A stretch of 64,000 nucleotides of DNA from a virus. Position 1 is the first letter of the stretch; the number at the start of each line of letters is the position of its first letter. Shown here piece by piece: positions 13,897 to 31,262 of this stretch. Position numbers and translations under genes: made by a program. The stretch is taken from the IMG/VR virus record IMGVR_UViG_3300031521_000009. One strand, 5' to 3'. The notes under the pieces are model-generated. The model searched no databases. It was not told the DNA's origin and saw nothing but the letters and a program-made list of their open reading frames with translations.

Positions 13897-15933
13897 TTAA
13901 GAAGCGAATTTAATATTTTGATTATTCTCAGATACATATCCACCATATGTGTCCTCTTCTAGTTCTTCTCCTTCTGAATAGGCTGCGAACTCTTGTGTTT
14001 CTAATGCACTGGCAACATTTAATGCACTGGCAATTGTAATATCACAATTATATTTTGGTGACTTTTTGAATTTGGCAAAAGCTTCAATCTGTCGTATATC
14101 AAACATCTTATCAATAATGGCAAAATCATCTTGCTTCATCTTATCTCTCCAAATATTTAAAGCATGTGGTATAAATGATTGTTCTACTCCATAACGTTGT
14201 GCAGCCTTACCATCTTGTACATATTGACTAATTACCATTTGTGGGCGTTCTTGTAATAGAAACTCACAACCGGCCCGCTTATAATAATCAAAAATCAATA
14301 CATTGGAATATTCAATCAAATTCTCACACTCACCATAGAGATAACAAAGCTTTATTGAATCTTCATAGAACTGATAATTTCCACCTTCATCTTCTGTTGG
14401 TCGTTCTGTCACCCGGGCAACCCAATGATCAAATGTATGATGTGAATCAATAGCTCCTTTCCAAATAGAACAACTACCCAATGAGAATGATGTTTCACTT
14501 TCTACTTTGTCATAGCTGTCCGTAGCGGCACTATAAAGATTTTTCCATACTTTCCCATAGCCATCAACTTCCGGTGCCTGTATGATAAGGAAACGACCTA
14601 ATTCAGATGGTACAAGTTCTACTCCTTTACCCCAATCAAATGGATCAATCCAATTGATTTCTGCATTGTAAGCAATTTGCTGTTCACGATGGGTAAGAAG
14701 ATATCGTTTTCTATCATTCAATTTTTGATTAGCCGTTTCTCCAAGAAAACCACCAGTAGCCACCATAAACATTTGTGATAAATAGAGTGGTTTAGCAGTA
14801 AGAGCAATGTAACGCTCAGAAGAATTTTTACTCGATAATTCTTTTTGAATCGAAACAATACTTTCCTCTATCAAACTATTACCATCTTCATCAATAATTT
14901 CAAACTCATAAGCTGGAACAAAGGCCGCTACCTTACCAGTCGAAGAGATTTCATCTTCTTCCCATATATTATCAAACTCGAGTAAGTCAAACTTAGCCGG
15001 ATTGTATGCCATTTCCTCTACATCAGCAACAGACTCGTCCATATCACCACCAGTACCAATATACATTTGATAACCGGTTTTGTCACCCTCTGCGAGTAGA
15101 GATGGTTTGACAAACTCTGCAGTTTGCTTAAGCGTGTCTTTTTTCCACTTTCCAATTTCTTCATATAATATCCAAAAAGGTGTAAGTCCTGAAACAGCTT
15201 GCGTATTATCTTTTGCAGTAATACAGTAGACTTCACTACCAAAACCGAGCATAAGCGTTCTTTTCTCTCCGGTTTCTTCATTTATTACTTCTTCACGATA
15301 TGAAGATTTAATATAGTCATTTCTATTTGGTGACCTACGTTTGTAGAACTCACTATCTCCTAGCCAATCCAAACCACGAACTACATTACTCATGGTATGC
15401 TCAGCATAGTTTCCTTGACCGGCAACAATTACATTTTGTGATCCTGGAATAAAAATGAAGTTGTAACCAATATTACTTGCAGCATATTCAGAGAATCCTT
15501 TCTGTCTTGACTTAGGAAATAACAAATCTTTTGCATTTAAGAACATAAGTTCTATACACATGAATTTGAAATAATCTAATGATGTAAATTTAGGATGGCG
15601 TTTATCCTTTCTCTTTACGTTATCAAGCTTAGCTAAGATTACCCAAAAATTTAAATAGAAATACATTCGCCCGGGAATCCAAATATCATATCCACGCTTT
15701 GTAGCATTTGGAACAATATATCCTTTGACACAACGACGATATTGTTCATGCCACCACGCTTGGTAGTCTGGACTATCTTTATTGGGTTGCATTTCATTCT
15801 TGTTATAGATAACAGGACTGAAACGTTTAGTATCTTTGAAATCTCTTGTTAGACACATGTTATCAATGTCCGGAACAAGTGTTCTATCCATTGCTAAAAT
15901 ATCATCTAAATATGTAAGCTTAATATCAGCCAT
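13897..15933 (-). CDS. terL: Terminase large subunit
   Basis: PGRMYFYLNF, Walker A-like KSRQKGFS, Walker B ILYEEIGK, GTGG and nuclease ATDSYD motifs. Confidence 0.95.
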   Translation of the reverse strand: MADIKLTYLDDILAMDRTLVPDIDNMCLTRDFKDTKRFSPVIYNKNEMQPNKDSPDYQAWWHEQYRRCVKGYIVPNATKRGYDIWIPGRMYFYLNFWVILAKLDNVKRKDKRHPKFTSLDYFKFMCIELMFLNAKDLLFPKSRQKGFSEYAASNIGYNFIFIPGSQNVIVAGQGNYAEHTMSNVVRGLDWLGDSEFYKRRSPNRNDYIKSSYREEVINEETGEKRTLMLGFGSEVYCITAKDNTQAVSGLTPFWILYEEIGKWKKDTLKQTAEFVKPSLLAEGDKTGYQMYIGTGGDMDESVADVEEMAYNPAKFDLLEFDNIWEEDEISSTGKVAAFVPAYEFEIIDEDGNSLIEESIVSIQKELSSKNSSERYIALTAKPLYLSQMFMVATGGFLGETANQKLNDRKRYLLTHREQQIAYNAEINWIDPFDWGKGVELVPSELGRFLIIQAPEVDGYGKVWKNLYSAATDSYDKVESETSFSLGSCSIWKGAIDSHHTFDHWVARVTERPTEDEGGNYQFYEDSIKLCYLYGECENLIEYSNVLIFDYYKRAGCEFLLQERPQMVISQYVQDGKAAQRYGVEQSFIPHALNIWRDKMKQDDFAIIDKMFDIRQIEAFAKFKKSPKYNCDITIASALNVASALETQEFAAYSEGEELEEDTYGGYVSENNQNIKFAS

Positions 15934-15936
15934 AAA

Positions 15937-16578
15937 TTATTTTGCTATAAAATATCCACCTATTGCACCGGCGCCTAAATAAAACCAAATATCATTTTTA
16001 CTCCACCATCCCGTTGAACGTTTTAATGCTCCAATCAAATCTTTTTTTTCTTTTTGAAGAACAAGATTTTCATTTTTGGATTGTTCTGTTTCTTCTACTT
16101 GTAGAAAGTATTTTTTAGTTACATCAGTCAGACTTAATTCGGTACTTGCTAATTTTTTCTCAGTACTTTTTATGATGGTATCTTTCTGCTGCAGAGAAAT
16201 ATTTTTTAGTCCTACAAGACTGTCACAATTTGCAAGAGTATGCTTAGTAGTATCGGTATTATAATCATTCTCAAACTTACTTATCTTATTTGTAAGAACT
16301 GAATTTTTGTTCTTATAAGTAGTAATCGTTTTAGTTGATTCTAAGCGATCTTTAGCCCTCAAAGTATTCACACTATCGATAGAGTCTTTTAATTGCTTAC
16401 GATAAGCGCTAGTTGCTGTATTATACCCATTACGATATGCAGATGATAGTTCTTGATTTACAATCAAGTTAGATGCTTGTTTTGATTGACATGATTTAAA
16501 CCAACCGCCAATAAACAACAAAAGCGCGATAGAAATTATCGCACTTATTATCCAGTTTTTCTTTATATATTTTATCAT
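15937..16578 (-). CDS. Putative spanin-like lysis protein
   Basis: N-terminal TM ending WFKSC, long coiled coil, C-terminal hydrophobic GAGAIGG segment; in the lysis cassette. Confidence 0.5.
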   Translation of the reverse strand: MIKYIKKNWIISAIISIALLLFIGGWFKSCQSKQASNLIVNQELSSAYRNGYNTATSAYRKQLKDSIDSVNTLRAKDRLESTKTITTYKNKNSVLTNKISKFENDYNTDTTKHTLANCDSLVGLKNISLQQKDTIIKSTEKKLASTELSLTDVTKKYFLQVEETEQSKNENLVLQKEKKDLIGALKRSTGWWSKNDIWFYLGAGAIGGYFIAK

Positions 16579-16796
16579 TGTTCTCGCGTCCCTCCTGTTA
16601 CGTCACTATCTTTTGTAAGAAAAGCAATTATTGCTGCAAGGAATATACTAATAGGAGAAAGGACCGATGCAACATCAAGAAGTGTGCATTTACCGGTATA
16701 AACAAGAAATAAACAAATGAATAAAACAATTATTCCAATAACACCCATTAAAGATGTTTTCCATGATTTGTGCTTATAAGAAGTACGTGGTTTCAT
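16575..16796 (-). CDS. Putative holin (2 TM)
   Basis: SWKTSLMG-TM-TM-KDSDVTGG pattern; next to the endolysin; likely start at 16796. Confidence 0.65.
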   Translation of the reverse strand: MKPRTSYKHKSWKTSLMGVIGIIVLFICLFLVYTGKCTLLDVASVLSPISIFLAAIIAFLTKDSDVTGGTREQ

Positions 16797-16825
16797 AATT
16801 ATTAATTTTATGTGTAAATACAACA

Positions 16826-16853
16826 TTAGGGAATGAACTTAATCACTCCCTAA
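16826..16853 (-). terminator. Hairpin, possible terminator after the small basic peptide gene
   Basis: ATTAGGGA-ATGAACTTAATCAC-TCCCTAAT inverted repeat. Confidence 0.45.
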
Positions 16854-17464: not shown

Positions 17465-17836
17465 TTAATCCGATTTATTTTCAATATCTAAAGCACGCAT
17501 TTTAATTGCTACTGGACAATTATCTGTATTGTCTTTATTATGTTTGCAACTTTTATTAGAACTTACAATCATTCTATATGCTGAGATAAGTCTTTGTGAA
17601 CGATTATCTTTTTTTAGAAGTTTTTCAACATCTTGTTCAAGAGTTTCAATTTTCTTCTCAGCTTCTAATTTCCATTTAAGAAGAAGATTTAGTGAAGTCT
17701 CCCATGATTGATTTTCTTTGATAATTGCATTACTTTTTCGAATGCTAATAGAGGATGGAGAAAAATATGAAACAATACTCATTGCTCCACCAGCAGCTCC
17801 AATAGCTCCACCTATTAATATTAAAATATTATCCAT
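17465..17836 (-). CDS. Single-TM coiled-coil protein (holin/antiholin-like)
   Basis: N-terminal hydrophobic GGAIGAAGG helix, coiled coil, C-x8-CP tail; upstream of the endolysin. Confidence 0.5.
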   Translation of the reverse strand: MDNILILIGGAIGAAGGAMSIVSYFSPSSISIRKSNAIIKENQSWETSLNLLLKWKLEAEKKIETLEQDVEKLLKKDNRSQRLISAYRMIVSSNKSCKHNKDNTDNCPVAIKMRALDIENKSD

Positions 17837-18000
17837 CGTTTTCTTTTTATATAAGTTTCGTCAATTTTTTTTGATTCCTCTAGTAGTCGTATTAAATGAT
17901 CTATTTCATTAGCAGTCATATTATCACAAACTCCATTATCTATTGCTTTTATAACTCTTTTGAAGAGTCGTATGATTGTTTTTTTTAGCGTAGCATCCAT
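17821..18000 (-). CDS. 59-aa ORF paralogous to the N-terminal domain of the HTH protein at 29839
   Basis: Read by hand: MDATLKKTIIRLFKRVIKAIDNGVCDNMTANEIDHLIRLLEESKKIDETYIKRKRWIIF; overlaps both neighbours; below the ORF-track cutoff. Confidence 0.6.
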   Translation of the reverse strand: MDATLKKTIIRLFKRVIKAIDNGVCDNMTANEIDHLIRLLEESKKIDETYIKRKRWIIF

Positions 18001-18361
18001 AGTAAAAATATAGAAATATTGATAAACTCAAAGATAATAATAAAATAGCACTCAAACAGTAAAATATATATGGCAATTTTATATTAACCTTATATAAATC
18101 TACTAAGACTAAAATTAAAATATCCGTGTAGATTAATATTCTATGCCAGGAACAAAATCTAAATGTATAAGATAATGCTAACATACCTATATGAAATAAA
18201 TAACAATGACAAATTATAGTCGTATGTGAAGTATATGCTGTATAATCAATAAATCCAAAAGCTTCCCCAGTCATACCTATAGCTAAATAAACTGTAAGTA
18301 TAACTGGGAATAACTTTACGAAGTAAAGAGATACATATCTTGATATATGTTCAAGATTCAT
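17936..18361 (-). CDS. 4-TM membrane protein with FRFCSWHR motif
   Basis: Four hydrophobic segments with clustered Cys/His residues (CHCYLFH, CSWHR). Confidence 0.7.
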   Translation of the reverse strand: MNLEHISRYVSLYFVKLFPVILTVYLAIGMTGEAFGFIDYTAYTSHTTIICHCYLFHIGMLALSYTFRFCSWHRILIYTDILILVLVDLYKVNIKLPYIFYCLSAILLLSLSLSIFLYFYYGCYAKKNNHTTLQKSYKSNR

Positions 18362-18366
18362 AATTC

Positions 18367-18876
18367 TTATTTGCTAGGTGGGAATGTTGCACCACCTGAG
18401 TCCGGGCTTTTTTTATCATCAGCTTGATCAGAACTTTCTTTTTTAATTTTCATTTGTTTCCAATTATTTGGTTGTGAAAAAAATTTAAGAGTAATTAAAG
18501 AATTCATAGGTATTCCTTTTGTAGAACGAACTGTTGATTCTTTAATCTCTACTAATGAAATTTTACGTTCAATTTCAAAATCTTTTTGAAGTTTTGCTTG
18601 AAGAATTTTATATTCTTTTTGTTCATCTAATGAAAGTAATAATATACTATCATCATGTTGAGCATTTACTTCTTTCCCTTTTTCTTGAATAATATTTTCT
18701 AATTCAATTAAACGTGGATTAATTGTTTTTTGAATTTTATTATTTTCTTTTTCAAGAATTTCAAAGTTATCTAAGATAAGACAATTTAATTCAGTATTAT
18801 CAATACCTTTAGCAGAAAAAATTGTCATTAAATTACTAATCTCAAAAAACTTTACTCTAATTTCTCCAATTTTCAT
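18367..18876 (-). CDS. Hypothetical helical protein with C-terminal peptide-like extension
   Basis: 169 aa; the last 28 aa (MKIKKESSDQADDKKSPDSGGATFPPSK) begin at an internal ATG at 18453. Confidence 0.6.
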   Translation of the reverse strand: MKIGEIRVKFFEISNLMTIFSAKGIDNTELNCLILDNFEILEKENNKIQKTINPRLIELENIIQEKGKEVNAQHDDSILLLSLDEQKEYKILQAKLQKDFEIERKISLVEIKESTVRSTKGIPMNSLITLKFFSQPNNWKQMKIKKESSDQADDKKSPDSGGATFPPSK

Positions 18877-18923: not shown

Positions 18924-19421
18924 TTAAGTTGGTGCAGATACTAAATCAGTACAATAATATGTTACTCCATCTACAACAATATATGTTCTAAAATAATATA
19001 TTTTATTTGCTATTAAAGGAGTACTGGTATTAATAGTAAGTGTTTGATATGTTACACTTATATCACTATTTGTACGTGTCCCTATAATATAATCATTATA
19101 AGAACGTGTAGGATTAGGAGCTGAATTCCAACAAATACCATACACTATAGAGCTACTAACTGGTGCTGTAAAAGTCATCCAATAAGCAATAAAAGTAGAT
19201 AAGTTAGTAACTGTTGCATTAGAAATACTTGTATTTATTGTAACAGTTATATGTTTATAGTTTCTAAAATTATATAAACTATTCTTAGAACCAACATATA
19301 GAGAATCAAATGTACCAGTAGCTGCTGTAAACAATTCAGTCAAACTTCTATCACTTGAATCTCCATATATTTCAGTAACAACATCTCTTTGATTAAATGT
19401 AGTTATATCAGGAACAGCCAT
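18924..19421 (-). CDS. Tail fibre-associated protein
   Basis: Overlaps the tail fibre stop; SLYNFRNY N-terminal motif and Fn3-like YGICW...YYFRTY C-terminus. Confidence 0.55.
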   Translation of the reverse strand: MAVPDITTFNQRDVVTEIYGDSSDRSLTELFTAATGTFDSLYVGSKNSLYNFRNYKHITVTINTSISNATVTNLSTFIAYWMTFTAPVSSSIVYGICWNSAPNPTRSYNDYIIGTRTNSDISVTYQTLTINTSTPLIANKIYYFRTYIVVDGVTYYCTDLVSAPT

Positions 19422-22400
19422 ACTTATCCTCCAATTGTTTTATTCTTGATTCTGCGTTAGCTAATTTGGCTACCAATAAATCAAAATATTTCACTTTATA
19501 TTCTCCTTCTATATCTCCGACTACAAATTCTTCAAATCCGCTACTTAGCAAATCTTGCGCTATAACACCAAACCTAAGTTCGTCTAAATTATTTTTAAAA
19601 TTAAACTCGACTAAGTCAATAGAGCTATAGTCTTTTAGTATTGGTCTTATGTTAGTCTTTAAGGTTCTATCTGATGATAAATTAAAATTAGTTGCACTTA
19701 CGTCACCACTAAATGTTCCTGTAGTCGCTCCAGTAATTGCACCACTAATATTTGCACTACCATTAAAGGATTGTCCCCAAATAGTTCTAGCTGTTTGCAA
19801 TATAGTAGCAGTACCAGCATTACCCGTTATAGTAGTTTGTGTGGCTAACCTTGAATCATTACCTTGACAAAATGTTCCTGCTATTGTACCAAAGGAACCG
19901 ACTTGTAAGATACCTCCAGTACCTGTTATAATAGGTAAACTAGCAACAGTTCCTATCAATCCTCCACTAGTTATATTTCCATGAACATGTGTAGTTAATG
20001 AATAAGAGCCTGACGCTTGTTTGTTATTGATCTGACCTTGCAATTTTTCAATCGCTGATTCTAAAGTATCGGTGTTCAAAACAGTGCTATTTGCACCAAC
20101 CGTAAAGCCTGTAATTACTTGTGAGAATAGATCGGTAATTCCATAACCGATAACTGTAGTTGGCCGGATACTAATTTCTGACCATGAGTAACTAGGTTTT
20201 GTCGCTGATTTAGCCCATGCAGAAACATCAGATGCTACACGAGCATCTGAAAGTCTTGAATCATTTCCTTGACAAAATGTACCTGCTGTTGTACTGAAGG
20301 AACCCGCTTGTAAAATACCGCCAGTACCAGTTATAATTGGCAAAGATGCTATTGAACCTATATATCCACTATTAGTTATATTACCATGAGAGTGAGTATT
20401 CAATGAGTAATTAGAAGGAATAAAATTTCCACTAGTCCAAACCGTATTCCATGCACCCGTAGACCTTCTTTGATACATGTTGCCATCGCTACTGAATCCT
20501 AATTGATGGAAATATGTGGAAGTGCCATTATAAGTATCAATAGTCAATACTGCATTAGCATTATCTACTGTAGTAAATTTATTAGTTGATGCTGCACCAA
20601 GTCTTGAATATGATAATAACTTATCTACATTAAGAGTATTTAAATCCAATGTTGGCATACTTGCAGAGTTGCTTAAAGAGCTATGTGTATGGATAGTTGG
20701 TGAATAATAACTTCCATGCTGTCCATCTAGTAAATCAGCATTAAAATCACTAACCATAGTAGTAGATGCTACAGTTAATGGTGCTGTTCCAGTTGCTATT
20801 GTTGATTGAAGTTGAGTAGCATTGACTGTTGACAAAAAGACTCCCCTACCATCACCATATAATTTTACATTAGGGGTAAATACAGACGAAGATATTATAC
20901 CCAACTGCCATATATTTGTTCCCGCTGACCCAATTGAAGTATTTAAAACCTCCCCAGTCATATATCTATTTACCCACCAGTCAGTAATTCCTTGTGTTCT
21001 AGGATATATAGCCATATTTGCAGCATATCCAATATCCCCAGTTATCCTAATATTTGCTGCTTGATTAGAAGTACCTTGATTTTGAATATAATTAGACATA
21101 CCACTAGGTAAACTAGTTAACCCATTACCACTTCCTATAAAATTAGTTGCACTGACTGTAGATGCAAAAGTTGCTGCTCCATCGACTTGTAGATTAGTAT
21201 TTGTAGATGATATAAATGAACCATCTGTATTACATTGTCCTAACCTAATTACCGAGCCACTACCTCCTATTCCCCATATATTAGATGAAGTCCAATTTCC
21301 TATAAATGCAGCAGAATTATATAGATAAGTTCTATAAACTCCATTTATATAACTATTAGCAGCTTGCGCTGAACTATTTTGATTCTGTATTGCATCTGTA
21401 ATTCCATAGTTAGATAAAGTAGTTGGATGATTACCAGTATTCCATGGAGTATAACCTAAAGCAGTAGTAACCATTCCTGAATTGATACCAGTTATCCATC
21501 CACCATAGTTACCAAGATTATTATTAAATTGACTGAGATTAGTTGGAAAATCACTAACTTGTGACTTAGTAATGCTTATACCAGTAGATTTATTCCATGC
21601 CGTAAATACGGGATCTGTCTCAGTAAAACTAGATAGGTAGTTATGCGTATGAGTAGTTATCAGTCCAGTAAGAACCGATTCTACATTCTCCTTAGTTATT
21701 CCACTAATATAACTATTTGGATTTGATGCCAAGTAATAAGATGAGCTATCATAGCTTATGGTGGTTCCATTAGCCTTTACAAATCCAATTCCATTCAATT
21801 GTGGCTGTCCGGCAAGACTAGATAAAGTTTGGTCGCCAGTATTAGTACCACTTACTGCATTCAATGCTACAATATTTGAATGTATATCACTAGAATATGC
21901 AACATTACTTGCTGATGTAACTAAACCTTTTCCATTAACCGTTATATTATTAAAAGTACCTACATTAGCATTTACTGTTGCTAAAGTTAGTACAGTAGAA
22001 CCTATTACATCACCAGTATGCGTTGCATTACTTAATTTATTATTGAAAATATTCCAATCAGTAGAAGATAATGCTCCGGTAGTTATTGTAGAAGATAAAC
22101 CCAATGATATTGCTTGACCAGATAAAGAAAGACCATTACTTGTTCCTAGAGTAACAGCAACATGTTTATCATAACTTACTTTTTGTAATGCTGTTAATAT
22201 ACTATCAGTTGTTGATATTGTACCTGATGTTGCTACATAACCAGAAAGTATAGTATTTAATATATCTGTAATTCCATATCCTGCAACTGTTGTTGGATGA
22301 TTACTTACACTCCATTGTAATATGTTAGCAACATTTGAAAGACCTATATCTGACTTATTCAATACAACAGCACCTATGTGACCATTTACAGAAATAACTG

Positions 22401-23448
22401 CATCTGTATTATCAACTTTACCCCATGTATTTCCATTAGCAATTAACCAGTCACCAACTTGCCATTCACTAACAGAACCCATAGTAGTAGTGCCGGCTAC
22501 CGAAACTATATAATAATCACCATTAGATGTTGGAATAGAAGGTAATGAAGGTGTTCCATTTGATGCATCCCAAAATCCTTTATAATCCACTTGACCAAAT
22601 AATGATGTCGGAAGTTGAGATAAAGGAACTTTTGTATCATTTCCTAATGTAGCTAAACCATTTGCTACGCCCATTAATGATGGAGACAATTTGTTATTAA
22701 AAGTAATCCAATCTACATTACTTAGTGCACCATTTGAAGTACTAGACGAAAGACCCAATGATAATTGTTGATTATCTAATGAAAGGCCATTAGAAGAACC
22801 CAATGTAAGTGGATTATGGTTTTTATAGCTAAGCTTCTGTATCGCGGTAAGAACAGTATCTGATGGACTTATAGTACCTTCTGTTGCTACATATCCTGAA
22901 AGGTTAGTACCAAGAACTCTATTATATGTAAAATAAAGATTAGCTGCTTCAGTAACTTCGGAAGTAGTATATGATGGTTTAGAAGTAGAAAGAGCCCAAG
23001 TTGGAATATCTGTTATTCCAAAACCTTGGACTGTTGTTGGTTTATTTAATAAACCAGAGAATGTCAATTGGTGTAGATTACCACTAGCTTGTGAATGATC
23101 GTAAGCAATCTTACCTAAATCACCATAGTAAGCATTTATATGAAGATTGCCAAGAACTAAATTTTCGACTGGAGCAAATAAAACCCATTGTCCATTTCTT
23201 CGACAATAGAGTTGTTCGTCTGGAGCATCACCGATACCGCTAGTAAAAAATGTAGTTGAAGGTTCTACAATATAAGTAACATTTGTATCACTTAGAATAA
23301 CTTCAAATTGTTCTACGTTTTCAGTAAATATCACTTCGTAAGTGACAATTACATTATCCAATACCAATTCAAAGATTGCATTTTTAGCGTTTATGTTTTC
23401 TTCATTGTTTCCACTTGTTTCATCTACCGTAATAGAATAGATATCCAT
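19408..23448 (-). CDS. Long tail fibre with C-terminal intramolecular chaperone (peptidase S74)
   Basis: 1346 aa G/S/T-rich; PTTxxGYGITD fibre repeats; YKGFWDAS...GDYYIVSVAG...GDW module; SSDRTLKTNI autocleavage motif and terminal coiled coil. Confidence 0.85.
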   Translation of the reverse strand: MDIYSITVDETSGNNEENINAKNAIFELVLDNVIVTYEVIFTENVEQFEVILSDTNVTYIVEPSTTFFTSGIGDAPDEQLYCRRNGQWVLFAPVENLVLGNLHINAYYGDLGKIAYDHSQASGNLHQLTFSGLLNKPTTVQGFGITDIPTWALSTSKPSYTTSEVTEAANLYFTYNRVLGTNLSGYVATEGTISPSDTVLTAIQKLSYKNHNPLTLGSSNGLSLDNQQLSLGLSSSTSNGALSNVDWITFNNKLSPSLMGVANGLATLGNDTKVPLSQLPTSLFGQVDYKGFWDASNGTPSLPSIPTSNGDYYIVSVAGTTTMGSVSEWQVGDWLIANGNTWGKVDNTDAVISVNGHIGAVVLNKSDIGLSNVANILQWSVSNHPTTVAGYGITDILNTILSGYVATSGTISTTDSILTALQKVSYDKHVAVTLGTSNGLSLSGQAISLGLSSTITTGALSSTDWNIFNNKLSNATHTGDVIGSTVLTLATVNANVGTFNNITVNGKGLVTSASNVAYSSDIHSNIVALNAVSGTNTGDQTLSSLAGQPQLNGIGFVKANGTTISYDSSSYYLASNPNSYISGITKENVESVLTGLITTHTHNYLSSFTETDPVFTAWNKSTGISITKSQVSDFPTNLSQFNNNLGNYGGWITGINSGMVTTALGYTPWNTGNHPTTLSNYGITDAIQNQNSSAQAANSYINGVYRTYLYNSAAFIGNWTSSNIWGIGGSGSVIRLGQCNTDGSFISSTNTNLQVDGAATFASTVSATNFIGSGNGLTSLPSGMSNYIQNQGTSNQAANIRITGDIGYAANMAIYPRTQGITDWWVNRYMTGEVLNTSIGSAGTNIWQLGIISSSVFTPNVKLYGDGRGVFLSTVNATQLQSTIATGTAPLTVASTTMVSDFNADLLDGQHGSYYSPTIHTHSSLSNSASMPTLDLNTLNVDKLLSYSRLGAASTNKFTTVDNANAVLTIDTYNGTSTYFHQLGFSSDGNMYQRRSTGAWNTVWTSGNFIPSNYSLNTHSHGNITNSGYIGSIASLPIITGTGGILQAGSFSTTAGTFCQGNDSRLSDARVASDVSAWAKSATKPSYSWSEISIRPTTVIGYGITDLFSQVITGFTVGANSTVLNTDTLESAIEKLQGQINNKQASGSYSLTTHVHGNITSGGLIGTVASLPIITGTGGILQVGSFGTIAGTFCQGNDSRLATQTTITGNAGTATILQTARTIWGQSFNGSANISGAITGATTGTFSGDVSATNFNLSSDRTLKTNIRPILKDYSSIDLVEFNFKNNLDELRFGVIAQDLLSSGFEEFVVGDIEGEYKVKYFDLLVAKLANAESRIKQLEDKYGCS
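19847..20397 (-). repeat. Duplicated ~49-aa module in the tail fibre (approx. 19847-19993 and 20251-20397)
   Basis: THxHGNITxxGxIGxxASLPIITGTGGILQxGSFxTxAGTFCQGNDSRL occurs twice; DNA is also similar. Confidence 0.85.
22030..22903 (-). repeat. Duplicated ~73-aa module in the tail fibre (approx. 22030-22250 and 22685-22903)
   Basis: LSGYVATxGTISxxDxxLTAxQKxSY...LGxSNGLSL...SLGLSS...GALSxxDWxxFNNKLS occurs twice. Confidence 0.85.
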
Positions 23449-28285: not shown

Positions 28286-28552
28286 ATGCAAGTAGGTGAT
28301 TTAATTTATTTGAACAGGTGTCACAGTACAAATTGTGGAAAAGACTATCCTGTAAATTCCATTGGTATTTTAGTTGTAACTGCAGTCCCTGATCGTGATG
28401 ATGATTTGCGTGTCCGTTTCTCAAGACATTCTACTAATGATCGTTCTTATATTCCGGCTTCTAAAATTGTTTTAGTACCAACTGAACGACAAGAAGAAGC
28501 AAGAACTAAGTTTGACAAGGCTAAAGAAGAATACAAAAATGCTGTGCTCTAA
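28286..28552 (+). CDS. Hypothetical SH3-like protein
   Basis: MQVGDLI... beta-barrel pattern; A-rich leader. Confidence 0.55.
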   Translation: MQVGDLIYLNRCHSTNCGKDYPVNSIGILVVTAVPDRDDDLRVRFSRHSTNDRSYIPASKIVLVPTERQEEARTKFDKAKEEYKNAVL

Positions 28553-28901
28553 CGACCCTATCATAATGCTACTGTATCTTCTTATAGGATTTGCAGTAGC
28601 TGCTCTTGCTCTTTGCTTTCAGCATATACAAGAGTTTGGAATGATATTCGACTGGTATCATGACTGGTTATACAAATACGTTCGATATAAGAGACTTTTA
28701 TCGAAGTATGGTAAGAATATACGTTTAGTGTCCTTTATGGCTTATATTGCCAAACCATTGGGCTTGTGTCCCTATTGTAATGGTATATGGATAGCTATCA
28801 TTACTTACTTGATTGCTTTTGGATTTCATTGGGATATATTTCTATTCATTGGCATATCATGGTTCTTTATTCGATTTATTCAACAAAACAAAATATTGTA
28901 A
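28539..28901 (+). CDS. Membrane protein with CPYCxxxW motif (DUF1360-like)
   Basis: TM helices around KPLGLCPYCNGIW. Confidence 0.55.
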   Translation: MLCSNDPIIMLLYLLIGFAVAALALCFQHIQEFGMIFDWYHDWLYKYVRYKRLLSKYGKNIRLVSFMAYIAKPLGLCPYCNGIWIAIITYLIAFGFHWDIFLFIGISWFFIRFIQQNKIL

Positions 28902-28902
28902 T

Positions 28903-29118
28903 ATGATTATTACTAGTGTAAATCAAGTTTATGATATTGTTGGAAATGAAATAATATTGTCCGGAATGAGTAATAAACAAATAGCTACTAAAGCTGGAGT
29001 AACTGAAAGTATGGTTAGTTCAGTAAGAGGTGGCAGATATATGCAAGTTAGTTTTGAAAAATTCATTACTATTTGTAAAGTTTTAAAAATTGAACTTCAA
29101 ATTAATATTAAACAATAA
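28903..29118 (+). CDS. XRE-family HTH regulator
   Basis: GMSNKQIATKAGVTESMVSSVRGG...SFEKFITICKVL. Confidence 0.8.
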   Translation: MIITSVNQVYDIVGNEIILSGMSNKQIATKAGVTESMVSSVRGGRYMQVSFEKFITICKVLKIELQINIKQ

Positions 29119-29122
29119 CAGT

Positions 29123-29407
29123 ATGGGAACACAAAATTATAGAGCTAAAGGAGATATTATCTTCTTTATGAACAACAACAAGATTGAAAAGAAACCAATC
29201 TTAGGTATATCAACATACACTGGTGATTGCCAAGTATTAATGAGTAATAATAGAATTGTTCCGGATGGAGAAGTTCTTATGGTGTATCACACTGGTTCAT
29301 ATCATGAAGTAGAATCAAAAGATGCTTATGATACTCTTGAGGATTTAATGACAAGTCTAACAACACCATTAAACTTACCAGATGGCACACAGAGTAGAGA
29401 ATCCTAA
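29123..29407 (+). CDS. Hypothetical protein
   Basis: ORF track; tightly packed in the operon. Confidence 0.55.
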   Translation: MGTQNYRAKGDIIFFMNNNKIEKKPILGISTYTGDCQVLMSNNRIVPDGEVLMVYHTGSYHEVESKDAYDTLEDLMTSLTTPLNLPDGTQSRES

Positions 29408-29648
29408 AGGGTTCAAAGTAATAAGCACTACAGCTACTGAATGCCTACAATGGGGTGGATTTGGCGTGTGTGATCATTGTAATCAATCTTCTGATGAAGG
29501 TCGATTTATTGCAGTTCTTAATCATTGGATATGTCCTGAATGCTTTGATAAATGGCTTAAACGTGCTGTTGTCTATGAAGAGGACAAACCTTATGAGACT
29601 AAAGTATTTAATCGCTATGCTAAATTGCTTGGCTTGCCGATTAAGTAG
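29382..29648 (+). CDS. Conserved Bacteroidota-phage Zn-finger protein
   Basis: GGFGVCDHCN...AVLNHWICPECF. Confidence 0.7.
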   Translation: MAHRVENPKGFKVISTTATECLQWGGFGVCDHCNQSSDEGRFIAVLNHWICPECFDKWLKRAVVYEEDKPYETKVFNRYAKLLGLPIK

Positions 29649-29743: not shown

Positions 29744-29813
29744 GGGAGTGTAGCTCAAAGGTAGAGCACAACATTTTATGTTGAGGGTGATGGTTCGAGT
29801 CCATTTGGTCCCA
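29744..29813 (+). tRNA. Degenerate tRNA (pseudo-tRNA; anticodon ambiguous, UUU or UUA)
   Basis: D-arm GCTC-AAAGGTA-GAGC and T-arm GATGG-TTCGAGT-CCATT are intact; anticodon stem CAACA/TGTTG encloses only 5 nt (TTTTA); acceptor stem has a G-G mismatch. Confidence 0.65.
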
Positions 29814-29838
29814 CTAATATCAATAAACAATTATTACA

Positions 29839-30132
29839 ATGAGAAATTTAAATAAGATCATTTCTATTGTTTTAAAAATGATAGAGAATAATGAATGCGA
29901 AGATTTGACTAATGAAGAATTAGAACAAATATCAATACTTATTCATAGACCTACTACAATGGGCCGAGAAGATGCTGCTAAGTTTATGGGAGTATCACTA
30001 AATAAGTTCCATGAACTAAAAGACATGGGTATAATATCAGAACCGCGCAAACGTAAAGGATTCAAAGAGAAAGAATATTATCTATCTGATTTGAAAAAAG
30101 CATTAGAATTAAAGAAAAAACTAGACCTATAA
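29839..30132 (+). CDS. Excisionase-like HTH regulator with extra N-terminal helical domain
   Basis: MGREDAAKFMGVSLNKFHELKDMGIISEPRKRKGFKE winged-HTH motif. Confidence 0.75.
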   Translation: MRNLNKIISIVLKMIENNECEDLTNEELEQISILIHRPTTMGREDAAKFMGVSLNKFHELKDMGIISEPRKRKGFKEKEYYLSDLKKALELKKKLDL

Positions 30133-30162
30133 AATTCATTAGTACTAAGTTAGAGTAGTATA

Positions 30163-30179
30163 TAATTTTGACATGTCAA
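30163..30179 (+). promoter_or_regulatory. -7 promoter element overlapped by a 12-bp palindrome (candidate operator)
   Basis: TAATTTTG at 30163-30170; TTGACATGTCAA at 30168-30179. Confidence 0.55.
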
Positions 30180-30210
30180 CAATTCAGTTGGCAATTAAAA
30201 ACTATATATT

Positions 30211-30942
30211 ATGTTGACATTAGATGGTACACTACCAACTGGCTCATTAGGCGGTGGTAGTTCAATGGGTTCCGGAGTAGGTCTTGGAGCAGTCGGTGGT
30301 GGTGTTGCTGGGTTAGTTCTCGGTTCACTTCTTGCAAACAATGGTAATGGTTTGTTTGGTGGTGGTAACAATGGCAATGCAAATGTTGCTGAGTTTGGTG
30401 CTATCAATAACCAAATACAATCATTGGCCGGTCAAATCAGTAATACTGCATTGACTGGTCAAATTCGTGCTGATACTATTGACCTTTCTCAAAGTATTAG
30501 TAATGTAGGTACACAAATAGGACAATTGGCGACTGCTCAAGCTGCAGCTAATTTTACTACTTTGGATTCAATCAATGGATTGGGAAGAGATATTACCGCT
30601 TCTCAAAATCAGAATGCTCTTCAACAATTAAACAGTTTCAATAACCTTACTACAACTACATTGCAAGGCTTCAATAGCTCAGCAATGCAAGTACAAAATG
30701 CTACGAATCAAATCATAGCACAAGGTACGGCTAATGCAGCTGCTATGGCTCAATGCTGTTGTGAGATTAAGAGTACTATTCTTGCCGATGGTAATGCAAC
30801 ACGCGCACTTATCAATGACTTGAATGTTCAAAATTTACGGGATCAACTTTCTGCTGCTAACAACAAAATCAGTAACAATGAACAAAATCAGTATTTGTTG
30901 AATACTATTTTGACTCATATTACTCCTACAGCAGTAGTTTAA
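30211..30942 (+). CDS. Gly-rich N-terminal, coiled-coil CCC-motif phage protein
   Basis: GLGAVGGGVAGLVLGSLL hydrophobic segment, N/Q/T-rich heptads, AQCCCEIK...DGNATRALI motif. Confidence 0.75.
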   Translation: MLTLDGTLPTGSLGGGSSMGSGVGLGAVGGGVAGLVLGSLLANNGNGLFGGGNNGNANVAEFGAINNQIQSLAGQISNTALTGQIRADTIDLSQSISNVGTQIGQLATAQAAANFTTLDSINGLGRDITASQNQNALQQLNSFNNLTTTTLQGFNSSAMQVQNATNQIIAQGTANAAAMAQCCCEIKSTILADGNATRALINDLNVQNLRDQLSAANNKISNNEQNQYLLNTILTHITPTAVV

Positions 30943-30953
30943 TACTTGCAATT

Positions 30954-31262
30954 ATGGCCAGTCCAGTAATTGTAGGTACTTCGGCTATAGTAGTCGCTCC
31001 TATAAATAAGAAAAGAAGTAACATTCGATTTCAGAATACCAGTACTAATATAATCTATATAAAGAAAATTCCTTTGAGTGGTCCTTATTCGGTTGTATCT
31101 GCTACTGATTATGAAATTCAATTGTTCCCGGCATCATCTTCTCAGGAAGGTGGTGAAGCATTCGAAACTAACTCTATTGCATCTTTTATGGCTATTGCAG
31201 CCGGAGCAAGTAGTGCTTTAGCAGTTTATGAAACTAATAAGGTAACCTCTAAAACTCATTAA
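30954..31262 (+). CDS. Small beta-sandwich protein
   Basis: NKKRSNIRFQNTSTNIIYI pattern; co-oriented with the CCC protein. Confidence 0.6.
   Translation: MASPVIVGTSAIVVAPINKKRSNIRFQNTSTNIIYIKKIPLSGPYSVVSATDYEIQLFPASSSQEGGEAFETNSIASFMAIAAGASSALAVYETNKVTSKTH

Follow-up and report, generated by a model that had tools for sequence, protein, structure and literature searches.

A conserved crAss-like phage gene module with a predicted membrane protein and a helical-hairpin partner

Excisionase/MerR-type winged helix-turn-helix (HTH) proteins, exemplified by RdfS, phage Xis, and the N-terminal domain of RacA (PF12728), are among the closest described counterparts of the gene module reported here, whose partner proteins carry a similar domain at their C-terminus. 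The module is encoded in IMG/VR virus record IMGVR_UViG_3300031521_000009, analyzed as a stretch of 64,000 nucleotides (hereafter the window, to which coordinates refer unless another locus is named), and its core lies on the minus strand between positions 17465 and 18876. Compared with excisionase/MerR proteins, the module partners add an N-terminal two-helix hairpin with a G-x-C-D/E...T-x-x-E turn and are encoded by genes that overlap the gene of a membrane protein; one copy in the window, a 59-residue protein, has no HTH.

No phages are more abundant in the human gut than Crassvirales, whose genes mostly lack a known function. The phage in the window is a divergent crAss-like phage, because its relatives carry a Crass_capsid gene and its large terminase is ~28% identical to those of known Crassvirales. 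A blastn comparison of the region with GenBank phages gave no match and thus no close relative there. An initial annotation of the window had proposed that three small units next to its lysis genes form a peptide, receptor, and adaptor signaling cassette. Our comparative analysis instead identifies the locus as one copy of a module that is conserved among crAss-like phages and appears to be translationally coupled, consisting of a small hydrophilic open reading frame (ORF), a predicted inner-membrane protein with four transmembrane (TM) helices (4TM), and a hairpin-domain gene whose start lies within the 3' end of the 4TM gene. In most phages carrying the module, the hairpin domain is fused to a predicted excisionase/MerR-type winged HTH.

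Conservation of the gene pair and its shared domain

The 4TM gene of the window (17936-18361, minus strand) encodes a 141-residue member of a family with the signature FxFCxWHR and overlaps by 65 nt the 59-residue gene (17821-18000, minus strand), which is read in the +1 frame. Using a degenerate DNA pattern for FxFCxWHRxLI, we retrieved 115 IMG/VR stretches, which together with loci found earlier gave 112 loci with a true 4TM member. In 103 of these 112 loci, another ORF begins in the interval from -130 to +30 nt around the 4TM stop codon. The downstream ORFs fall into 15 sequence clusters, 14 of which contain the hairpin domain: ten carry it together with an HTH (89-130 residues), and the remaining four, namely the window clade, L005, L010, and L009, have no HTH. 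The downstream start codon sits within the last codons of the 4TM gene, the overlaps span 8-113 nt, and the frame offset relative to 4TM is either +1 (12 clusters) or +2 (three clusters). A start inside the 4TM codons combined with a variable frame offset points to translational coupling and not to a conserved frameshift site.

A reverse search from the HTH side, made with a narrower alignment and yielding 12 loci, gave the same picture, with a 4TM gene directly upstream in ten of them. The two exceptions (L127 and L128) belong to the window's own clade and encode proteins 75-78% identical to HTH97, the full-length HTH protein of the window (29839..30132, plus strand), which is likewise detached from any 4TM gene. 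In L053, L098, L114, and L129-L138, the genes of more distant HTH97 homologs (45-62% identical) begin within the end of a 4TM gene. The joint occurrence of a small ORF, a 4TM gene, and a helical domain with or without an HTH, which the initial annotation could only anticipate from one phage, is thus seen across diverged crAss-like phages.

Two loci depart from the usual arrangement. In L025 (7321-8094), 4TM and its 129-residue HTH partner are fused in frame into a 257-residue protein through the loss of one base in the overlap. In L191 (1057-2261), the membrane protein gene is duplicated, with two tandem 4TM paralogs preceding the HTH partner; this contig was binned with a Muribaculaceae metagenome-assembled genome, a possible hint at the host. 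A scan of bacterial genomes with the DNA pattern returned 53 matches, all but two of them outside the family; the two true members, L149 and L191, resemble binned phage contigs. We found one GenBank record carrying the module, that of phage csAssE-Sib, in which the small ORF, 4TM, and the HTH protein are all annotated as hypothetical. The module is unnamed in Pfam, PHROGs, NCBIfam, PADLOC, the PDB, and the ESM Atlas, and our literature search found no description of it; it is defined here from well over a hundred crAss-like contigs.

The relationship between the 59-residue protein and the N-terminus of HTH97, first proposed from a short alignment, is weak in direct comparison (7 of 21 identities, E = 3e-4 as a single comparison). 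The pairing ranks first among Smith-Waterman matches to the 203 ORFs of the window, but only at a family-wise shuffle p of ~0.05. We therefore turned to a profile built from ten distinct HTH proteins encoded downstream of 4TM genes in other phages, with all window sequences excluded. This foreign-only profile matches exactly two window ORFs, HTH97 (E = 8e-34) and the 59-residue ORF (E = 1.2e-7). The latter aligns only to profile positions 3-48, the alignment stopping before the HTH, and its domain has the pattern G-x-C-D-x-h-T-x-x-E. These matches sustain the proposed shared domain and indicate that the 59-residue protein is a true homolog, namely a paralog, of the N-terminal domain of HTH97.

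In an AlphaFold2 (AF2) model of HTH97 (predicted local distance difference test score, pLDDT, of 88), the shared domain forms a two-helix hairpin (helices 2-16 and 25-35), with the turn following the pattern G-x-C-D/E-x-h-T-x-x-E. The remainder of the model comprises two helices (43-50 and 54-62) and two strands (70-71 and 78-81) arranged in a winged-helix fold. Its top Foldseek matches are the RdfS excisionase, RacA, GlnR, and MerR (probability 0.97-0.98, E = 0.04-0.2). PF12728 (HTH_17) matches 8 of 11 members of the partner family (best E = 4.3e-6); HTH97 itself, which has no Pfam match at E ≤ 1, matches only phrog_668 (3.8e-4), an entry annotated as 'HTH DNA binding protein'. When a profile of the HTH family was compared with PDB sequences, designed helical hairpins and weak MerR/MarR matches were all that came up, and tblastn with HTH97 gave no match. 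Together, model and family matches assign the C-terminal half of HTH97 to the predicted excisionase/MerR-type winged HTH domains.

The membrane protein and the preceding small reading frame

An exhaustive HMMER search for 4TM relatives yielded 29 cluster representatives at E ≤ 1e-3, mostly of ~110-145 residues (range 86-192), without a fused helical domain in any of them; the extra length of the two largest (167 and 192 residues) is at the N-terminus. Six positions are invariant in the family (P19, S64, C70, W72, H73, and G122), K16 and F69 are nearly so, position 74 is usually arginine and occasionally lysine or glutamine, and a C-terminal Y-K-x-G-C is common. Of the two Cys-His motifs that had been singled out in the window protein, FRFCSWHR therefore stands as the family signature FxFCxWHR, located between TM2 and TM3, whereas CHCYLFH is not conserved.

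The AF2 model of 4TM (141 residues, pLDDT 80) contains four TM helices. Lysine and arginine are enriched at the N-terminus, in the TM2-TM3 loop that carries FxFCxWHR, and at the C-terminus, and by the positive-inside rule both termini are therefore predicted to be cytoplasmic. In this topology, every conserved polar residue would lie on the cytoplasmic side, and the predicted periplasmic loops, of ~11 and 6 residues, are short and variable. An outward-facing version of the receptor initially suggested is not supported by this topology. Searches of Pfam, PHROGs, NCBIfam, and PADLOC with 4TM, the 59-residue protein, and the neighboring proteins p123 and p169 returned nothing significant; specifically, 4TM matches no Pfam family at E ≤ 1, including AgrB (PF04647), and no holin family in Pfam, PHROGs, or NCBIfam. 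Comparison of the 4TM model with the ESM Atlas (by features and by fold), with the PDB (Foldseek), and in a wide VIA-align search gave only generic four-helix bundles (Z ≤ 8.1).

In the csAssE-like clade, the 4TM gene is interrupted in ~16 of ~70 contigs. The Trp56 codon is replaced by TGA in four contigs (L026, L082, L090, and L109) and by TAG in three (L087, L100, and L105); L050 (TGA) and L081 (TAG) have their stop at another codon, and a 1-nt frameshift is present in L036, L039, L064, L106, L112, and L125. Genuine null alleles, recoded stop codons, and assembly errors are all conceivable causes of these interruptions; translation with TGA or TAG as sense gave no clear distinction between interrupted and intact contigs. 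Near the module in several csAssE-like loci (L012, L014, and L105), treating TGA as a sense codon joins ORFs of ~390 residues into ORFs of 810-910 residues, which hints at a TGA-interrupted or recoded gene there.

Of the loci, 94 extend far enough upstream of 4TM to be judged, and each of these has an ORF whose end lies no more than ~130 nt from the 4TM start. In most clades this ORF encodes 22-55 residues, and its stop codon is often only a few nucleotides from the 4TM ATG. In eight clusters the product has the motif P-x-[TS]-G-G-[GA] a few residues before its end (for example, IPRTGGG, KPRTGGG, and PQTGGA, with PDSGGA in the window), and other small ORFs end in a proline-rich tail of the DPPxPxxPPIxP type. 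Two large clades instead carry an unrelated, Lys/Arg-rich ORF of 35-40 residues. The expectation that a Pro/Gly-tailed small ORF precedes the membrane protein gene accordingly applies to many lineages.

In the window, the corresponding segment is not a separate gene. The initial annotation had singled out the 28 codons starting at ATG 18453 as a candidate peptide in frame with the tail of the upstream gene; these codons and the stop (18367..18453, minus strand) form the in-frame tail of p169, a hypothetical protein (18367-18876, minus strand) whose stop codon lies 5 nt ahead of the 4TM start. The tail, with its conserved SPDSGGATFPPSK, is the counterpart of the free-standing small ORF that precedes 4TM in relatives. 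Free-standing versions of 30-36 residues occur in L005, L006, L010, and L056, and the ORF is also separate in L135 and L136; in these six loci, P-x-[TS]-G-G-[GA] stands near the C-terminus. The window and L001 carry the small ORF as an in-frame extension of p169, and in L006 the p169 body (144 residues) and the tail peptide occupy different frames. Only the close clade has p169 homologs. The tail differs between the window and L001 by three substitutions, all synonymous; the indels are in frame. The p169 tail can thus be described as a fused small ORF.

Judged by eye and not by a predictor, neither the 28-residue segment nor most of the small ORFs contain a signal or TM segment; those of L133-L135 have moderately hydrophobic N-termini. 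Hydrophilic for the most part, poorly conserved, and basic in two large clades, these products speak against a secreted communication peptide. The small ORF would be part of the module, probably as an intracellular partner or a leader ORF.

The HTH-less gene and its genomic neighborhood

Several observations show that the unannotated 59-residue ORF is a genuine coding unit, as initially proposed. Its product is identical in L001-L004, relatives whose 4TM proteins are 92% identical to that of the window, and all five nucleotide differences from these loci are synonymous in the 59-residue frame, one of them introducing a stop into the 4TM frame that shortens 4TM to 133 residues from 141. Against L006 and L005 (90 and 75% protein identity), the ratio of nonsynonymous to synonymous substitution rates (dN/dS) is 0.07-0.12, the non-overlapping part included, in comparisons where dS reaches values above 1. 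The ORF is also annotated as a gene in other assemblies, and its ATG and M-D-A start are conserved. The phage gains a genuine gene of a kind that often escapes gene callers.

We considered whether the 59-residue frame is instead a C-terminal extension of 4TM, reached by a +1 shift or by transcriptional slippage at a run of eight adenines (A8) within the overlap (17979-17986, minus strand). Removal of one A from this run joins the two frames, the run is kept in L001-L006, and the L025 fusion provides a natural in-frame precedent. The conserved start of the 59-residue gene argues in the other direction, as do the absence of the A-run from all other clades, the two different frame offsets, and the family of 4TM proteins, whose representatives show no C-terminal helical domain; overall, we regard such an extension as extremely unlikely. 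A programmed frameshift was also rejected as a general mechanism, on the grounds that the A-run is confined to the close clade and the offsets vary. A sequencing error is excluded, since independent assemblies show the same run. Finally, a functionless, decaying remnant of a rearranged HTH gene, which the lack of an HTH and the position at a rearrangement breakpoint might suggest, is hardly credible given a dN/dS of ~0.1 at such divergence and the retention of HTH-less copies in four clusters that have diverged to only ~30% identity between their 4TM proteins.

The origin of the HTH-less copy can be read from gene order. In L135, a tail fiber gene is followed by p165, the small ORF, 4TM, the HTH gene, and homologs of a 243-residue and a 102-residue protein, and the last four genes are likewise contiguous in L053, L098, and L114. 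In the window, the tail fiber (19408-23448), p165 (18924-19421), p169, 4TM, and 59-residue genes lie together on the minus strand, and HTH97 and the genes for the 243-residue Gly-rich/CCC protein and the 102-residue protein (30211..31262, plus strand), which follow the 4TM-HTH pair in the ancestral order, lie 12 kb away at 29839-31262. With these genes now in two places, the ancestral block must have broken inside or beside the HTH gene. In the window clade, 4TM kept an HTH-less copy under strong purifying selection, which now lies ahead of p123 and the endolysin gene. The start of the relocated block is marked by a tRNA-Lys(UUU) gene (29744-29814, predicted by ARAGORN) directly upstream of HTH97. 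Farther upstream, 1 kb from HTH97, a 129-residue multi-TM protein with a C-P-Y-C motif (28512-28901), which does not belong to the 4TM family, is followed by an XRE-type HTH protein (28813-29118) and a Cys4 zinc-finger-like protein of 88 residues (29382-29648).

Re-reading the gene layout confirmed the positions and minus-strand orientation initially given for all units, as well as their tight packing next to lysis genes. The 59-residue ORF overlaps by 16 nt the gene of p123 (17465-17836), a protein with a Gly-rich N-terminal TM segment, a coiled coil, and a C-terminal Cys pair. Next on the minus strand come the endolysin, a phage lysozyme (16963-17451; PF00959, E = 1.6e-29; phrog_7), an 83-residue protein with two TM segments that is the most ordinary holin candidate (16575-16826), and a 213-residue Rz-like protein with a weak match to Rz-like spanin PHROGs (15937-16578; 3e-4), which precedes the large terminase gene (13897-15933). 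In L001-L004 and L006, an endolysin with GH108 and PG_binding_3 domains replaces the lysozyme of the window between the same flanking genes; the endolysin was swapped inside a conserved lysis cassette.

A p123-type protein follows only HTH-less versions of the pair, namely in the window clade, in L005, in L010 (E = 5e-5), and, weakly, in L009. Two proposed relationships in this neighborhood were rejected: p123 is not a short paralog of the 243-residue protein (hhalign probability below 1%), and comparison of the 243-residue protein with the csAssE 'ring protein' was negative. In most phages, the module lies between tail-fiber and virion-like genes. The link to lysis suggested by the window is therefore not a general one, and only the HTH-less variant precedes a p123-type protein and an endolysin.

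Possible functions and comparison with known systems

The near-universal overlap of the two genes makes a physical link between 4TM and the hairpin domain the natural reading. We tentatively favor membrane tethering, in which the hairpin domain would dock on 4TM at the cytoplasmic side of the membrane, so that a DNA-binding protein would be tethered or sequestered there. Docking would involve the FxFCxWHR loop and the C-terminal G-C of 4TM, and the conserved cysteine of the hairpin domain may take part in it. Depending on the partner's role, the winged-HTH protein would be a regulator that is held back, or the DNA itself would be anchored. In the window phage, a single 4TM could serve two hairpin proteins; the 59-residue copy would compete for or occupy the docking site and thus set the amount of free HTH97, and could in addition have been co-opted by the lysis genes nearby. 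A role of the HTH-less copy as a relay or dominant-negative, as first suggested, is plausible. Membrane proteins paired with DNA-binding proteins are familiar from other systems, and here such a pairing suggests a phage regulator or DNA organizer controlled from the membrane. The split in the window, which leaves a single 4TM, an HTH-less domain, and a full-length HTH protein, amounts to a natural genetic dissection that makes the interaction directly testable.

Several points weigh against tethering. Adjacency and overlap of genes show co-expression, not contact. C123 of 4TM is lost in lineages whose partner keeps its cysteine, and the partner in L037 has no cysteine; a strict intermolecular Cys/His metal site shared by the two proteins was accordingly rejected, as C123 and the partner cysteine do not co-vary. 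Searched alone against Pfam, HTH97 gave no match at E ≤ 1 and reached no Pfam HTH threshold. Finally, the broken 4TM genes in the csAssE-like clade (~16 of ~70 contigs) imply that the pair may be dispensable.

Alternatively, the pair could control lysis, with 4TM as a holin or holin partner and the 59-residue protein as a cytoplasmic regulator that, together with p123, sets lysis timing. The recurrent order of 4TM, HTH-less domain, and p123-type TM/coiled-coil protein in the window, L005, L009, and L010 would fit such a role, as would the endolysin gene that comes next in L005 and the window clade and the one found 0.8 kb upstream in L133. In most clades, however, virion-like genes follow the pair and the partner is a DNA-binding protein, and the window already encodes a typical holin candidate with two TM segments beside its endolysin. 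Holins are very diverse, so the missing family match for 4TM does not exclude one, although it counts against the idea, and to our knowledge an invariant C-x-W-H loop would be unusual for holins. We consider lysis control unlikely.

The same architecture might instead hold the phage DNA at the membrane while it is replicated, packaged, or ejected, in the manner of phi29 p16.7 or RacA-DivIVA of B. subtilis, with no part in transcription control. RacA and the excisionases, which the winged HTH resembles, are architectural DNA binders, and the module resides among late or virion genes. Anchoring of this type would leave the HTH-less copy, which is under strong selection, with no role, and we have no evidence for DNA sites; we judge it unlikely.

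A signaling role, in which the product of the small ORF is processed or sensed by 4TM and 4TM in turn controls the HTH protein in the manner of agr or arbitrium, is closest to what the initial annotation envisaged. The small ORF does abut the 4TM gene in most clades, its P-x-[TS]-G-G-[GA] tail recurs in eight clusters, and 4TM carries an invariant cysteine and histidine as well as a usually conserved arginine. Nevertheless, most small ORFs show no export signal, those of two large clades are unrelated and Lys/Arg-rich, the conserved face of 4TM is predicted to point inward with tiny outer loops, and family searches with the module proteins found no AgrB, TPR, kinase, or receiver domain. Most members also have no link to lysis, and we consider a signaling circuit of this kind highly unlikely. 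An intracellular variant is just as doubtful: the P-x-T-G-G-G tail would be bound or cleaved at the Cys-His-Arg face of 4TM in a reaction resembling that of a miniature sortase or AgrB-type enzyme, would release or capture the hairpin-HTH protein, and would thus time late genes or, in the window clade, lysis instead, through the HTH-less copy and p123. If true, it would represent a new class of phage-encoded membrane signaling device in the most abundant human gut phages.

Among described systems, arbitrium (AimP/AimR/AimX) resembles the module only in having a small phage ORF near a regulator; the small ORF of the module lacks a signal peptide (judged by eye), and the module has neither a TPR receptor or AimR match nor a lysogeny module. 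T4 lysis inhibition, in which the cytoplasmic protein RIII acts on holin T, is comparable to the window clade alone, which shares a small cytoplasmic helical protein and a membrane protein near lysis genes; there is no homology, and most members of the module carry an HTH and are not linked to lysis.

The agr system offers a parallel in layout, namely a small ORF beside a small polytopic membrane protein with conserved cytoplasmic Cys and His residues and a linked DNA-binding protein. AgrB is a membrane peptidase with catalytic His and Cys. Unlike agr, however, the module has no PF04647 match, histidine kinase, or response regulator, its peptide lacks an amphipathic leader, and its host is Gram-negative; 4TM, with 141 residues and four TM helices, also differs from the AgrB type, which has ~190 residues and six membrane segments. 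The logic of the module would match that of membrane sequestration and anchoring systems, such as anti-sigma/sigma pairs, Mlc-PtsG, RacA-DivIVA, and phi29 p16.7, in that a membrane protein and a DNA-binding protein appear to be made together. The module shares no sequence or fold relation with these systems, and it is gene order that suggests binding between its two proteins.

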